Assembly (NCBI GenBank): GCA_039545335.1
Contig: BCIN01000001.1
Location: forward strand, 1,472,604-1,536,603
Origin: Kondoa subrosea
Taxonomy: Eukaryota
DNA: 64,000 nt
Direction: 5' to 3'
Position 1 is the stretch's first letter. The number at the start of each line of letters is the position of its first letter. The translations under genes and the position numbers were made by a program. The notes under the pieces were generated by a model, which did not search any database, was not told the origin of the DNA, and saw only the letters and a list, made by a program, of their open reading frames with translations. Shown here piece after piece: positions 12,893 through 61,334 of the stretch.

Positions 12893-14428
12893 ATGCCCCG
12901 ATCCCCTCAAGCCATTTTACATGGATCAACGATTCTCATTTCGTATGTCCGATAATCCACTTCAAGACTGTCCTGACCTTCTTGAATGACAGCGGGGGTG
13001 CAGGTTTCGTCTCTTCGCACCTTATTGAGCGTCTTCTTGACCCTATATTCGGAACCAAAAAAATCTACACCATTGTCCGAAGCAAACCTGGACAAACATC
13101 GGCTTCTCGCCTCCCTCGTACTCTGCAACCGCTGATAGCTACGAGGCTTGAAGATGGTCGCTTTTCGGAAGGTCCTTTGGTAGTATTGAGCGGCGATTGC
13201 GGCGAAACCCACTTTGGCTTGGACGCACAAGATTGGGCTCTTTTGGACAAGATCGATATCGTCATACACCCTGCTGCGAATACGAACTTTGGCGAAAGTC
13301 TTTCGCACATGTTGAAAACAGTAGTTCCGTTTACATTTTGAGATCTCTTTGGGCCAATGCTGAATCTGGTCATCAATATAGGCCAGTCTAGCGTACAATA
13401 TGGCTTGCTTCACTTTGACCAAGCCGAATGTGAAGGTGCACATGCATGTCAGTACAACCTACACAGGCTGGAATCAAGAGAAAGGCTCTGTCTTATATGA
13501 AGAGCCTTTGAAGCCTTCAATCGTGCCGCACGTCAACAGCTGTAAGTTGCCTCATCAAAAGTGTTGTCTCGCGTCTCGTACAATCGTGATAGACTTTCAG
13601 ACGAAGGCCATCGCGGAATCTTTCATGGAAGTGTTGGCGCCCACAACCTGCGCAAAAGCTGTCTTTCGAATTGCACGCCTGAGTATAATCGGTCCTGCTA
13701 TGTATCATCCATTTCTCGGAAGTGGTGCGGGCCCAGCAGTATGTCTGATTACATTTTCAGCTGTGCAGAATCTGATCAGCCACGCATCAGAGTCCAATAG
13801 CTGCAATGATCTCAGCTGAAAAAATATCAGATGAATTGGTAGACCAAAAGGGAGTGTTTGACGGTTCGCTTGTGTCTGTTGGGGGATTATGCGGCAAATC
13901 TGAGCATTGGCATACAGTTCTGCCTGTCGATTTCTGCGTGGATCAACTGATCGCCATCACTGCTTCCTCTCTTCTGACCTCACAGAAACCGATTGCATCT
14001 CCGCGTCAAGTTCAGGTTTACAATCTAGCAGCGGGTGCAGACAGATCAGATCTCGTGCCAGTTGACATCATGAATGGTGTACAATACAAGATCTCCAAAC
14101 CGGTCATACCTAGTGCAGTAGCCTTTAGGGCATATGACAGTATCTTCAATCATGTGAGTGACACCTATGTCTGATATTCGATGCAGGACAACTGACTCTG
14201 CCGCGACAGAGTGTGCTATTCGACAACAAAAAGACGATGTACGTCTGTGGCATTACAAAGTCAGGGATGTCGGTAGACGAACCTGTCGACTGCACAAATT
14301 TGCAAGTGGACTTCCAGCAAGCGTTGAAACAGTTTGGCGGATGGGAAGCATATTATCTGGCTGTAAGAGATCACATACAAAAGCACCGAGACATGAGAGA
14401 ACGGAAGAGCAAGAAGTCGAAGTTATAG
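12893..14428 (+). CDS. Fatty acyl-CoA reductase-like extended SDR, copy 2, PTS1 SKL
   Basis: SGGAGFVSS, IYTIVRSKPG, HPAANTNF, HVSTTY, NSYFQTK, VLPVDFC; ends KSKKSKL*. 6 introns. Confidence 0.85.
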
Positions 14429-50588: not shown

Positions 50589-53178
50589 ATGAGCAAACAA
50601 TACACTCGTGAGGAGGTTGCAAAGGTCAGCAGCATCAAATTGCTGCACTCTCATTGGCTCACGAATGTCTCTTATTGCTCAGCACAACAAGGCTGGAGAT
50701 GTTTGGAGTGAATTCTCGTTTGCCATCAGTCCAGATACAGTACTGATCTTCTCTCATAAGTTGTGGTTGATACGGTTGTATACGACTTGAGCAAGTTCGT
50801 GACCTTTTCAGTCAGCTTGTACGATTCCAGCTAATTGCTATGCTATGATTCAGATTCGTGGACCTTCACCCCGGTGGTGCATACGTTCTTCTCGTAAGTA
50901 ATTTTGTCTCGTATGACGTCTAAATCTGCTGACCACATGTCCAGGACAAGGATGTAGCCGGCCAAGAGTGCTCAGAATCATTCTTTGGACTTCACAAGGC
51001 GGAGATCTTGACTAAATACAAGCGTCTTGCTATCGGTACCATCTCCAACGAGAAGCCTCAGTGGATTTTACCAGAGAACGGCAAGCTATCTCAAGTTCCT
51101 TATGCCGAACCCGCTTGGCTTTCTCGAGGATACTTTTCACCTTACTACAATGAATCCCATCATGCTCTTCAGAAATTCATGCGTGATTGGGTTGATAGAA
51201 AAGTCAAACCAGAAGCTATTAGCGCAGAAGAGTCAGGCAAGCGTCCTTCAGTTGCTTTGGTACAAGAAGCTGGTGAACTCGGCATTAATGCCTTGAGAAT
51301 GGGTCCTGGTGTTCATCTAAAAGGAGTCAAGCTACCTGCTGGTCTAAAACCAGACAAAGTCGATTACTTCCACGAACTCGTATGTATCTGTGACTGCTAC
51401 TTTTTGTGATCGACTGATGATCTTTCAGGTTGTCAATCAAGAACTCGCTAGAGCTGGTATGAGAGGTTTTGGAGACGGTTTCCAGGTGTGTTGAGTTTCT
51501 AATGGCCGATGAAGTAGTCTAATCTGCGTTTCAGGGAGGAATGGTTATTGGACTACCGCCTGTTTGTGTGTAGTCGTAGTGCTCAGATTTTTTCCCGGCT
51601 AATTCAGCTTGAAGTCAACTTTGGTAACGACGAGCTCAAGAAACGCATTGTGCCCGAAGTTCTCGCTGGTCGCAAATTCATCGCTCTGGCTATCACAGAA
51701 GCTTTCGCTGGTTCCGATGTTGCTGGTCTACGATGTGTTGCTGAGAAGACTCCTGACGGAAAGCACTGGATCGTCAATGGTACAAAGAAGGTCAGATATC
51801 TCAGACTTGAGGACGGTCACCATATACTAAACAATCGCTTAGTGGATCACCAACGGAACTTTTGCAGACTACTTTTCAACCGGTACGCAAGATGTGAGAT
51901 AGACTAATCTCAGAGCTCACGCAATCTATAGGTTGCAGAACTGGTCCCAACGAATTGACTATGATTTTGATCGAACGAACCGATGATGTGGACACCAAGC
52001 AGATCAAGACCTCGTATTCTACCACTGCTGGAACAGGTAGGCTTATATCTCTGCAAATTTTCAGCCCACGTATGCTAATGAATCTGATAGCGTACATCAC
52101 TTTCGACAATGTCAAAGTTCCTGTTGAAAACACTTTGGGCAAAGTTGGCGACGGTCTCAAAGTCATCTTATCGTAAGGCTACAATCTCTTACGGTATCAC
52201 TGGTCACTCATGCTTCCGCACGTAGCAATTTCAACCACGAGCGATATGTTATGGCTACTGGATCTGTTGCCGCCAGTCGTTTGGTTACTGAACAATGCTT
52301 TGTCTGGGCTCACGTTCGCAAGTTCGTAATATTGCTTTCTGTATGTGCGATATGCTGAAGTGATGCACAGGGCTTTCGGCAAATCCCTCATGACCCAACC
52401 GTACGTGCTATTGGCCTTTTGTATGTCCGATAATCTAAAATGATGAATAGTGTGATTCGCCAGAAACTTGCACAGTAAGTGTCTGTCAAATCGGAGACTG
52501 AATTTGTCTTATATCTTGCCCAAGGATGTTCGCTCAAGTCGAGTCTGCGCAAGCATGGCTGGAGCATGTGAGTGGCTTTGAACAACTCCTTAGTTATTGG
52601 TGTTTATCGATACAATCATTCGCAGATTGGTTACCAAATGTGCAAGATGACTTATGCTCAGCAGTCTGCACTACTGGCCGGACAGATCGTATGTCGCACT
52701 GAGATATGACGTACTGCAGCTAACGTCTATTGTAGGGCATTCTCAAATCTCTGTGTACCAGAGTCGAGACTTTCGTTTCAGACAATGCAGTCAGTACAGA
52801 TATTAGGGGTTCGAGGTATCACTAAAGGCGGTCTAGGTACAAATATTAGGGGGTCGAGGTATCACTAAAGGCGGTCTAGGTGGCGGAGTTGAGATGCATC
52901 AGGTAAGATCTCGTACTTCTGACGACTAGACTCACTAAAAAGGTCTTCTTCGATGTTTATAGAGATCATTCAAGTTTAATTCCATCTTGGGAGGGGCTGA
53001 AGAGGTGACATCACCTTTTGAAAGGTCTCGAAGTATTCTGACCGTTATTGGTATAGGTTCTGAACGACTTGGCTGTCAAGCAGGCCATGAAGATGATGCC
53101 AAACAAAGGCAGAGTGAGTAATCTATCGTCTGAGACATCTTCTGACACTTACGTCTTGTCAAGGTCGCCATGGGATGA
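50589..53178 (+). CDS. Acyl-CoA dehydrogenase with N-terminal cytochrome b5-like domain (~20 introns)
   Basis: YTREEVAKH, VYDLSKFVDLHPGG, VPYAEP, LAITEAFAGSDVAG, NGTKKWITNG, NFNHER, VQILGGRGITKGG, ILGGAEEVL; last exon uncertain. Confidence 0.92.
52794..52879 (+). repeat. 43-bp tandem direct repeat (2 copies, 2 mismatches); copy 1 is intronic, copy 2 exonic
   Basis: GTACAGATATTAGGGGTTCGAGGTATCACTAAAGGCGGTCTAG / GTACAAATATTAGGGGGTCGAGGTATCACTAAAGGCGGTCTAG. Confidence 0.97.
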
Positions 53179-53427
53179 TCTCAATGAACTTGTCTTTGGA
53201 CTACTGGCTGCCTCCTATCACTGTACATTATGCATTGTCTGTGATCATGATCTGTATTGCATGTTTTCCGCGAACACCTGGCTGCATGCTCTGCACCTTG
53301 AGAAGCAGGATTCGCAGATCTGCTGACTAATTTTGCCACGAGTCCCTTTTTCGCCCATGTCTCAGAAAGTAAGCGCATTACGAGCCGCTGTAAGTCCTTG
53401 GCGCAAGATGTGCTGTACAATAATCAA

Positions 53428-57448: not shown

Positions 57449-60400
57449 ATGGATGAACATCCTCAGCAAAAGCATCGAGGGCATAGAGTCCAGAAGGATA
57501 AAGGCAAAGAGAAGCCTAATCTGTATGTCAAGAACCCTCTCACTGCACCTTTGCTCAAAGCTCATACGTATTGCTTGACATAGGAAGGGATCCAATCCAA
57601 GAGCGTTCACATCTCAAAGTGGAGCTAAAGCTGCTCGTTTAGCAAGAAGAAAAGTAGAGCAAGATCAAACGAGGTTGCATCTACCTGCTGTTGATCGAAC
57701 ATTTGGCGGTCATGCTCAAGGTCAAGGAAAGAGTTCAGTCTTGGGTGGTGCTGTCAAAGGTGCAGCGGATGCATTAGGTCCTCCTCCTGTCATTGTTGCT
57801 GTCATTGGTCCTCCTGGCGTTCGTTCTCATAAACCAAAATCATCCTCTTGTGGCTGATTTGGCCTTTCTCCAAACAAACAGGTCGGCAAATCTACTCTTA
57901 TTCGCAGCTTAATTCGCAAATACACAAAAGTCACCATGACAGATATCAAAGGACCAGTCACTGTAGTCAGCGGTATGTACCTCTTCGCCTGAACCGATTT
58001 ATGCTCATTCAGACGAACAGGTAAAACCCGTCGAGTCACCCTGATCGAATGCCCGAACGAATTGGGAGCTATTGTAGATATCGCAAAGATTGCAGATCTG
58101 GTCTTGATCATGATTGATGGTTCATTCGGGTTCGAAATGGTTCGTTCTTGGTCTTCAGATCAATAACTAGCGCTCATCAAGTATTCAGGAAACCTTTGAA
58201 GCTCTTTCAGCTATGAACGCACACGGTCTACCCAAAATCATTGCTGTTCTAACTCATCTCGACCTTATCAAATCCGCTGCTACATTGAAAGATCAGAAAA
58301 AGAAACTCAAGCATCGATTTTGGACTGAAGTCTTTGATGGAGCGAAAATGTTTTACTTGTCAGGAATCATCAACGGTCGATATCCAGATCGAGAAATCAT
58401 CAACTTATCTCGATTCATCAACGTAGCTAAATTCCGACCTTTAACTTTTCGAAATTCCCATCCTTATTTCTTGGCTGATCGAATTGAAGATCTTACACCA
58501 AAAGAAGCAACAAGAGAAGATCCTAAAATTGATAGAACCATAGCTGTTTTTGGTTATCTTCGTGGTATTCCTTTAAGACCACCAAATGGTACCAACGCAA
58601 TCCGAGTTCATATTCCTGGATCAGGTGTGGATGCATTGGAATGTTCAAAATTACTCGCTTTACCAGATCCTTGTCCTCTACCTACGAAAGAAAGCGAGAA
58701 ACGTAGGAAATTAGGTGAAAAGGATAGATTGTATCATGCACCAATGTCTGGCGGTGCTGGAGGTCAGGTCGTTTTCGATGGTGATCGAGTTTGGATCAAT
58801 ACTGCCGGAACCTTTACAAAAGCGAAAGAGGGAGAAGAAGGAAACGGTAGGTTGGCAATGTACTGAAATCAGAAAGTCGCTGATTCATAGCTATTGCCTG
58901 CTTACAGTGCCACTTGGCGAAGGGGAACAAATGATTATGGACTTGCAAGATGTCAATGGTACTCTAGCCGACGGCATTGCGAAGTCTCAAATTCGTCTTT
59001 TTGGTCATGATTCTATGCCTGTCCAAATCGGATCCTCCAAAGATCTAGAACTAGACGAAGACGCTTCTGATTTAGATGAAGACGCTTCCGATTTTGATGA
59101 AGAGGTTTACTCGGGGGAGGACGATCTGGAAGAAGAGATGGATCTTGATGAATCTTCTCGAGCACCGAAACGGAGTGGTCAACGAATAGCTTTGACTGGT
59201 CCGACTGAATCAAGCAAACCTTCGAGGAATGGGATAGCTTATGCTGAAAGTGATTCCGATCTTGGCTTTGGGTCAGATGAAGACAATATGCTGGACGAAG
59301 AAGACGATCTTGAAGACGTACCGAAATGGAAGTCAAATCTATCTCAGAAAGCTGCAGACAGTTTCGCCGCGACTTCGAATCGCCGACGACCGAATCTTAT
59401 GAAACTCATCTACAGTTCTTCTCTTACTCCCGATCAGATTGTCAAAGGCGACGAAGATGATCCAGCGGACGATATACAGCTGGACGACGACGAGCTATTC
59501 CAGCTTGCGAGACGAGGTCCAACTGGCATTGAAGAGTCGTTTAGACCACCTGTAGAAACTGCTACTCTGGCTTCAAAATACAGTGTAGATGAAGCCTTGG
59601 ATGGACTGCGGCATCTCTTCATTACTGGACAAGCCAGTGGCGCGAATAGTGCTCCTGTCATCGATCGGCAATACGAATCCGATGCTGGTAGCTTCGAAGA
59701 CCTGGAAAACGACAATGATGAGGCCGATGAAGAAGGAGAAGGAACTGCTGAAAAGTCAGAGGAGCAGAAAGCAAAAGATCTGGCTGCGAAGAAAGAAGTT
59801 CTTAAGCGAAAATTCAACGAGCAATACGATGACTCTTCAGACGAGGCAGATAAGCAAGACTTCTACACAGAACAGAAAGAAGAAATGGCGAAACGTATTG
59901 CAGCTACTCAAGCCGAATTTGTGAACGACGACGCAGAAACAAGAGCCATGGTCGAGGGTTATCGACCGGGCACATACGTCCGTATGGAGCTGCATAACGT
60001 ACCTTGTGAGCTTCTCGACAACTTCGATCCTCGCTTCCCTCTTCTTGTTGGCGGACTTCTCGGTCACGAGGAAAGTTTCGGCTACGTACAAGTACGCATC
60101 AAGAAGCATCGTTGGTTTCCCAAGATCCTGAAGACAAACGATCCTCTTATCTTCTCCATCGGTTGGCGACGCTTCCAGACTGTACCGGTATATTCTTTGG
60201 ATGACGGTACGCGGAATCGGATGCTCAAGTATACTCCTGAACACATGCATTGTCTGGCTACATTTTATGGTCCGATCTCGGCCCCGAACAGTGGCTTCTG
60301 CGCCTTCAACTCCTTCTCTGACGCAACTCGCTCTTTCCGTGTGACGGCTTCAGGCACTATTCTCGATATTGATGGCTCAAGTCAGATAGTCAAGAAGCTC

Positions 60401-61269
60401 AAATTGAATGGTGTACCTTACAAGATTTTCAAGAATACTGCTTTTATCAAAGAAATGTTCAACACTTCACTCGAAGTGGCCAAGTTCGAAGGTGCTCAAA
60501 TTCGAACAGTCTCTGGCATTCGCGGTCAAATCAAGAAGGCGCTATCAAAGCCGGAAGGATGCTATCGTGCCACCTTCGAAGATCGAGTATTGCTTAGCGA
60601 TATCGTGTTCTTGCGTTCTTGGTTCCAAGTACAGCCACGAAAGTACTACAATCCGATGTCCTCTTTATTGCTTGAGAAGAAATCAGAATGGCAAGGTATG
60701 CGTCTGACGGGTCAAGTGAGAGTCGAAGAGGGTGCAAAGACTCCCTCGAACGTGAACTCAATTTACAAGGTAAGACGGACACTATGCGTGCGCTTTGTGC
60801 TCACGACTTGCGTAGAAAATCGAACGGCCTACCCGGCGATTCAACACGCTCAAAGTTCCGCGCAAACTTCAAGCTGCTCTGCCTTATGCTTCAAAATCCA
60901 AGATCATTGCGCCTCAGAAGCAGGCTACTTACATGCAGAAGCGAGCTGTTATTATGGATCCGGCGGAACAGAAAGCACTCGGTCTACTGCAGCAGATTCA
61001 GGCAATTGAGAAGAACAAAGTCGCCAAGAGGAAAGATAAGCAGCAAGAGAGGCGAGTTGAGAAACAGAAAAAGATGGCTAAAGGTGAAGAAGCCAAAGCA
61101 GATCGCGAAAAGAGGGAGAAGAAAGAGCGTACGTTCAGCATTATATGGTCGGCTTAGATCGAGCTGATAAGATTGCACAGACTTCCGCAAGCAAGGTCAA
61201 CAAGAGAAGCGCAAAGCTGAAGCTGAAAGCAGACCTGCGAAGAAGTCCAGGCGGAACGCAGACGATTGA
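57449..61269 (+). CDS. BMS1: Ribosome biogenesis GTPase Bms1
   Basis: PPPVIVAVIGPPGVGKSTLIRSL, GPVTVVSGKTRRVTLIEC, DGSFGFEMETFE, GYRPGTYVR, RMLKYTPEHMHC, IRTVSGIRGQIKKA. Confidence 0.97.
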
Positions 61270-61334
61270 TCAATACCCCTCATTAGAACCTTATGCATTG
61301 AATGTACTACTTTGTTACTTATCGTTGATGACTT

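Follow-up and report, generated by a model that had tools for sequence, protein, structure and literature searches.

The tandem genomic duplication model of intron gain goes back to Rogers (1989). The vertebrate gene ATP2A1 is described as a natural case in agreement with the model, and the event was re-enacted experimentally in ATP2A2, in an account that also includes fission-yeast and potato cases of duplication-born introns (PMC4974935). Table 1 of a 2012 review assigns 188 events to tandem genomic duplication, which the review presents as the only mechanism that has been demonstrated in vivo, in one case (PMC3443670). In fission yeasts, 2 of 62 reported intron gains have an identifiable source, namely tandem repeats (PMC3629103), and some novel introns of Drosophila are attributed to the duplication of coding sequence that contains a proto-splice site (PMC2891723). 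Here we describe a probable new case: intron 17 of a cytochrome-b5/acyl-CoA dehydrogenase fusion gene from Kondoa subrosea. The gene lies in a stretch of 64,000 nucleotides of contig BCIN01000001.1, all of which was analysed and which we will call the window. A preliminary description of this locus had stated that very few natural examples of the mechanism exist. This was overstated, given the 188 events in the table of PMC3443670 and the clear cases reported from fission yeasts, Neurospora, potato, Drosophila, and vertebrate ATP2A1. According to PMC4974935, what is seldom found together is a known source for the intron and phylogenetic support for the gain; the latter, a site without the intron in outgroups or sister taxa, is the criterion of Logsdon et al.

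In the dehydrogenase gene, a 43-nt segment that begins with GT and ends with AG is present twice, head to tail. The second copy opens exon 18; the first copy and the 4 nt ahead of it make up the proposed intron. We think it likely that intron 17 is a young U2-type spliceosomal intron which arose by tandem duplication of an AGGT-bearing exon segment, as in the Rogers model, and which was later improved by a micro-duplication at its donor. The features of the locus are (positions are those of the window):

50589-53178, + strand: cytochrome-b5/acyl-CoA dehydrogenase fusion gene, with 21 exons, 20 GT..AG introns, and a coding sequence of 1551 nt (516 codons and a stop)

52736-52789, + strand: exon 17, 54 nt, which ends after codon 457 (phase 0)

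52788-52795, + strand: tandem doubling of CAGT, which straddles the border of exon 17 and intron 17; its first GT (52790) is the proposed donor, GTCAGT

52790-52836, + strand: proposed intron 17, 47 nt, phase 0, made up of GTCA (4 nt) and then copy 1; predicted from the sequence

52794-52836, + strand: copy 1 of the 43-nt unit, intronic in the proposed parse, with a Gly-to-Val-type change at 52810

52820-52826, + strand: the branch-like motif of copy 1, CACTAAA, at a distance of 11 nt from the 3' splice site

52837-52879, + strand: copy 2 of the 43-nt unit, the opening 43 nt of exon 18, coding (VQILGGRG...)

52837-52902, + strand: exon 18, 66 nt

52863-52879, + strand: the branch-like CACTAAA and the TAG for a second time, now within exon 18; predicted to be a possible rival acceptor, and splicing to it would take out 90 nt and cause a frameshift

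The locus resembles vertebrate ATP2A1, as described by Hellsten et al. 2011 (PMC3265369) and in PMC4974935, in that an exonic segment with AGGT was duplicated and the intron is delimited by a GT and an AG from the two copies. In both genes the branch point would have pre-existed in coding sequence, and the protein is unchanged. In contrast, ATP2A1 has an ancient intron, whose origin was reproduced experimentally in a paralogue, whereas the two copies here are still 95% alike and the case is known from DNA. Also unlike ATP2A1, a second doubling, of 4 nt, appears to have moved and strengthened the donor. The fission-yeast cases (PMC3629103) are likewise gained introns of fungi that resemble neighboring exons and that came from tandem repeats, and there too the non-identity of the copies argues against assembly error. 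Those cases are described as multi-copy arrays of a 24-nt unit with AGGC as proto-splice site and with support from expressed sequence tags; ours is a single 43-nt duplication with AGGT, and its splicing is predicted.

Another fungal intron that is highly similar to an adjacent exon, NCU09740T0-2 of Neurospora tetrasperma, was also interpreted as having been gained through tandem duplication (Sun et al. 2015, PMC4317165). That intron is reported to be 614 bp long and 100% identical to its 5' exon, while the likeness here covers 43 nt at 95% identity, involves the 3' exon, and yields an intron of the tiny size that is normal for this genome. As in the RdRp intron of potato (Ma et al. 2016, PMC4974935), the tandem duplication looks recent and a cryptic donor from a former exon would have been activated. 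The potato duplicate is described as spanning an existing intron-exon border, from which it inherits its branch site and acceptor, and as adding exon sequence; here, in contrast, every signal derives from coding sequence and the protein gains nothing. Finally, Cryptococcus CNN00420 provides a basidiomycete example in which the local duplication of DNA, perhaps through replication slippage, added introns to a gene (Sharpton et al. 2008, PMC2395259). There, whole pre-existing introns were copied within the repeat, whereas the present intron would be new and built from exon sequence.

Word searches of open-access text, which are not proof of absence, found no report of this gene or of a donor-repairing micro-duplication at a duplication-born intron. 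The mechanism itself is established; what is new is an unusually clean case of it, and the donor-improving second step is the one feature that we did not find described. Traceable intron gains are scarce; here there is no ambiguity about the source, and the intron has a full length of just 47 nt. If it is spliced, the locus would be a compact natural test of the idea that coding sequence alone can supply a donor, a branch site, and an acceptor. It would also be a test case for the repair of a weak newborn donor and for wasteful mis-splicing by a duplicated acceptor inside an exon. If it is not spliced, the locus is merely a broken allele of a gene of lipid metabolism and is of little interest.

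We drew the exon model of the dehydrogenase gene by eye, guided by tblastn with the homologues P0001 and P0002, and then checked it. The model has one stop, at its end, and 478 of its 516 residues are identical to P0001, without gaps. All 20 introns run from GT to AG. With Pfam, P0001 contains the Cyt-b5, Acyl-CoA_dh_N, Acyl-CoA_dh_M, and Acyl-CoA_dh_1 domains; the repeat, at codons 458-472, falls inside the C-terminal dehydrogenase domain (PF00441, residues 346-501 of P0001). Using exon 5 (50945-51379) as the query, we found 48 homologues among 330 candidates, and the full-length ones all carry both Cyt-b5 and acyl-CoA dehydrogenase domains. The closest is P0001, from a metagenome of the JGI (89% over the exon), followed by P0002 (72%). 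The nearest named matches are from Puccinia graminis and from a species of Microbotryomycetes, each at 54%, so that, judged by this gene, the host organism looks like a basidiomycete without a close named relative in the database that was searched. The contig that encodes P0001 (L001) has an uninterrupted coding region, which is 80.0% identical to our spliced model at the nucleotide level and 53% identical at third codon positions. It appears to be a cDNA-type contig of a fairly distant relative.

The tandem duplication itself, which the preliminary description had given as a 43-nt GT...AG unit with two mismatches and a 4-nt micro-duplication ahead of it, is borne out exactly by the letters and by Tandem Repeats Finder (TRF). 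The copies are identical at 41 of 43 positions, with no insertions or deletions (indels), and differ at 52799 (G, versus A at 52842) and at 52810 (T, versus G at 52853). TRF reports positions 52794-52881, which is 2 nt into the flank, with a period of 43, 2.0 copies, 95% matches, 0% indels, and a score of 162. A GT follows each copy, and the junction reads AGGT, which is a proto-splice site. Nothing else like this repeat was found in the window, and it greatly exceeds what chance would produce. The 43-mer occurs in two places if up to 3 mismatches are allowed (and nowhere in 100 shuffles); of the 7 arrays that TRF reports for the window, no other has a period greater than 21; and our own scan for tandem pairs of 30-100 nt at 72% identity or above found this one cluster, and none in each of 5 shuffles.

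The likeness to the adjacent exon is also specific to intron 17. In local alignments to the 80 nt downstream of each intron, intron 17 has a z score of 30 (against shuffles), while 18 of the 19 other introns have z scores of 2.2 or less. The remaining one, intron 12, reaches 9.7 only by its likeness to intron 13. Similarly, a search of the window with intron 17 (blastn-short) had the adjacent exon as its sole match. With all 20 introns as queries, the sole additional match was of 15 nt, between intron 13 and positions 12943-12957, and we took it to be due to chance. A possible second duplication, of exon 18 in intron 18, came down to one shared 8-mer, which is the branch motif, and we rejected it.

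We also considered other origins for these letters. An introner-like or transposon-derived intron should be present in many similar copies, and within the window the unit is found in just the two places. Neither a single tandem duplication of 47 nt nor a filled-in staggered break with a 4-nt target duplication fits the order of the letters, and we rejected both.

Translation of a message that retains the 47 nt would end at codon 469 of 517. The same stop is reached if either copy is removed by itself, and joining 52789 to 52880 shifts the frame and leads to a stop at codon 481. We tested all single GT..AG removals of at least 30 nt between exon 17 and the end of exon 18. Although 21 of these parses keep the frame open, only the removal of 52790-52836 gives a conserved peptide of the same length as in the orthologs, and it includes a stretch of 30 residues that is identical to P0001; in the other 20 parses, conserved residues are lost or exchanged. 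With the T at 52810, a Gly codon would become a Val codon, and all 16 of the aligned homologues have Gly at this place (G463). It follows that the derived letter belongs to the copy which the 52790-52836 parse leaves untranslated. These results agree with three claims that had been made from the sequence: that only this removal restores the conserved peptide, that retention or the splicing out of copy 2 leads to a stop or a frameshift, and that copy 1 carries a Gly-to-Val change.

We compared the splice signals of intron 17 to donor and acceptor matrices that were built from the 19 other introns of the gene. The donor at 52790 (GTCAGT) scores 5.61 bits, which is close to the median of the other 19 donors (about 5.7 bits; range -1.3 to 9.06), and two of those introns also start with GTCAG. 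Before the doubling of CAGT, the donor would have been GTACAG at 52794, which scores -1.54 bits, or lower than every other donor in the gene. It had been proposed that the CAGT duplication upgraded this weak donor, and the scores fit that proposal well. The GT that opens copy 2 scores 1.35 bits as a donor. The acceptor of intron 17 is in the middle of the range (2.74 bits, versus -1.38 to 7.0 for the others). In 9 of the 19 other introns, a CTRAH motif lies 11-12 nt from the 3' end; in intron 17 the distance is 11 nt. The length was rightly called typical: the 20 introns of the gene are 47-60 nt long (median 50.5), intron 16 is also 47 nt, and another gene in the window has an intron of 46 nt for which the cDNA of a relative gives support (see below). 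(A window-wide census of introns by joining open frames recovered just 7 of the 20 introns that we had modeled by hand; it was noisy and we discarded it.) On donor, acceptor, branch distance, length, and restoration of the frame, then, intron 17 is predicted to be of the U2 type (GT-AG).

We propose that this intron formed in two steps. In the first step, a 43-nt piece of a former 120-nt exon would have been duplicated in tandem, with GT as 2 nt of microhomology at the junction. The product would be a GT...AG unit that already held the branch-like CACTAAA 11 nt before a TAG, and the removal of either copy would have restored the message. In the second step, the CAGT that spans the border would have been doubled, which would lengthen the intron to 47 nt and replace the poor donor GTACAG with GTCAGT. 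Because the 4 nt at the start of the intron are a perfect tandem copy of exon and donor letters, we take them to be a micro-duplication and not a remnant of an older intron. After the second step, the frame would be restored only by the 52790-52836 parse, and copy 1, freed from translation, could keep a Gly-to-Val-type change that would be intolerable in the coding copy.

From the sequence we infer that the spliceosome removes these 47 nt, which of the two steps came first, and that the site had no intron earlier, and several points weigh against our interpretation. First, the splicing of 52790-52836 is predicted from DNA, and the set to which we compared its signals comprises just the 19 other introns of one gene. 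Second, the same branch site and TAG recur 43 nt downstream, where they might draw splicing away from the proposed acceptor and cut the yield of correct mRNA: the acceptor at 52879 has the same score, 2.74 bits. Third, one error-prone repair event could have produced both mismatches as well as the 4-nt doubling. The allele might then be very young and just broken, and nothing could be concluded from the fact that the gene is otherwise intact. Fourth, the closest sequence, L001, is an intronless cDNA that diverged far earlier than the duplication, so it cannot show an intron-free site. Finally, both of the DNA runs that confirm the repeat (see below) are from one sample, which is probably the source of the window. 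The anatomy and every sequence-level test that we ran fit the claim, in the preliminary description, of a duplication-born intron; its splicing and its gain are better put as predictions. The description had also called the gain very recent. The high identity of the copies (41 of 43) supports a recent origin, but "very recent" should be toned down, as 2 substitutions in 43 nt do not amount to zero age unless they came from the duplication event itself.

The main alternative is that this is a null allele, in which the 43-nt duplication and the 4-nt doubling form an unspliced, frameshifting insertion of 47 nt that resembles an intron by accident. We consider this to be unlikely, but it deserves to be taken seriously. 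With the 47 nt retained, the stop at codon 469 lies inside the region that matches PF00441 and would truncate the enzyme. Because some fungi have two paralogues of this gene (such as two entries from Sanghuangporus), it might be dispensable. Splicing is a prediction, and a single error-prone repair event might yield the duplication, the 4 nt, and the mismatches together. To see how often a plain duplication would look like an intron, we simulated every tandem duplication of 40-60 nt that falls within one exon of the spliced gene (n = 15,774). Of these, 7.8% gave a GT..AG-bounded unit whose removal restores the message, and 3.1% also had a branch-like motif in range, so a look-alike would not be vanishingly rare. 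An intron look-alike from a plain frameshifting duplication is possible but uncommon. In contrast, just 0.19% of the simulated duplications (30 of 15,774) had a donor of 5 bits or more, so that an arbitrary frameshifting duplication would be unlikely to show all of the features that we observed. Such donor quality is rare and it depends on the extra 4 nt, which create a donor of average strength exactly where the frame is restored. The branch distance and the length of the intron are at the modal values for this gene as well.

The condition of the rest of the gene also argues against a null allele. We looked elsewhere in the gene for the lesions of a pseudogene and found none in 516 codons and 20 introns (one terminal stop, GT..AG at 20 of 20 introns, and no gaps relative to P0001), although a null allele of very young age would give the same picture. 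Should the two mismatches be later substitutions, then in the time that they took to arise, a pseudogene should also have decayed at other places.

A second alternative is that an old intron between codons 457 and 458 was replaced rather than a new one gained: the start of the exon would have been duplicated and the interior of the old intron then deleted, with its first 4 nt left behind. The gene is so dense in introns (20 in 1551 nt) that an old one at any particular site would not be surprising a priori, and the first 4 nt of intron 17 do lie outside of the 43-nt copy. Replacement would require at least two precisely placed events, however, and in the intermediate the old acceptor would remain upstream of copy 1, which would put 43 extra nt in the mRNA. 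It would also have to be by coincidence that the 4 nt repeat the border-spanning CAGT perfectly and in tandem. We therefore regard replacement as very improbable, and parsimony would favor a gain.

Sequences from relatives add a little to this question. We scanned metagenomes with two peptide patterns; 396 of 585 pattern matches encode a relative, and we kept 80 loci. (In this gene the coding sequence for the two patterns is interrupted by introns 8 and 10, so the scan would miss intron-rich genomic relatives, and none of the loci comes from a close relative that is rich in introns.) At 73 of the 80 loci there is one unbroken match to P0001, as expected for cDNA or intronless genes. The other 7 loci have a split match, and all 7 are continuous across residues 457/458, which argues weakly against an old intron at this site, as these are distant and intron-poor relatives. 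The message in L001 has a single copy of the segment, with no GT or AGGT at the homologous places.

The duplication is also present in reads. X1 and X2, both of DNA, are the only public runs that were found to contain the locus. In their Logan k-mer contigs, 52300-53300 is spanned in one piece in each run, with 0 differences and no indel. The spanning contigs are 74.7 kb and 36.0 kb long, with word depths of 143 and 54, and there is no alternative contig. The longest exact in-register run that is common to both copies is 28 nt, which is less than the 31-nt word, so the 31-mer graph is unambiguous at the repeat. X1 and X2 are runs from one sample, so their support is not independent; as far as the data go, the duplication is in the reads of that sample and is not an artefact of the assembler. 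That the genome is truly single-copy, and the repeat an error of sequencing or assembly or a minority haplotype, is barely credible: its one support is that the reads may be those from which the window was assembled, and against it stand two separate runs, a different (k-mer) assembly method, long single contigs without differences or alternatives, and two copies that differ at 2 positions.

The gene has a very high density of introns and has tiny exons, with 20 introns in a coding sequence of 1551 nt and exons of 24, 25, 30, and 31 nt; exon 14 (52451-52474) is the one of just 24 nt. The 30-nt exon 13 is flanked by introns 12 (52322-52370) and 13 (52401-52450), which resemble each other over their whole length (38 of 51 aligned columns, or 75%, are identical). 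Their local score is 34, while the median among the 190 pairs of introns is 12 and the next-best score is 19 (z of about 10). No such duplication is seen in the exons around them. The likeness suggests an older event, in which an intron was copied to a place 30 nt away.

Tentatively, the birth of an intron and its first improvement might both be preserved in this one genome, with a 43-nt duplication that gave all of the signals and a later 4 nt that fixed the donor and the working length. Together with introns 12 and 13, this would raise the possibility, which we hold with some doubt, that local copying is a continuing source of introns in this intron-dense lineage of basidiomycetes.

In L001, the dehydrogenase cDNA is joined tail to tail with a Tsr1/Bms1-type ribosome-biogenesis gene (positions 1789-2858 of L001; Pfam RIBIOP_C; about 80% nucleotide identity). 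In the window, the Tsr1/Bms1-type gene (60122-61288) is about 7 kb downstream of the dehydrogenase, on the same strand. Unless L001 is chimeric, the two species differ in their gene order here. Two introns of the gene in the window, at 60770-60815 (46 nt) and at 61129-61180 (52 nt), are absent from the relative's cDNA contig, and the 46-nt intron is the shortest cDNA-supported intron that we saw in the window.

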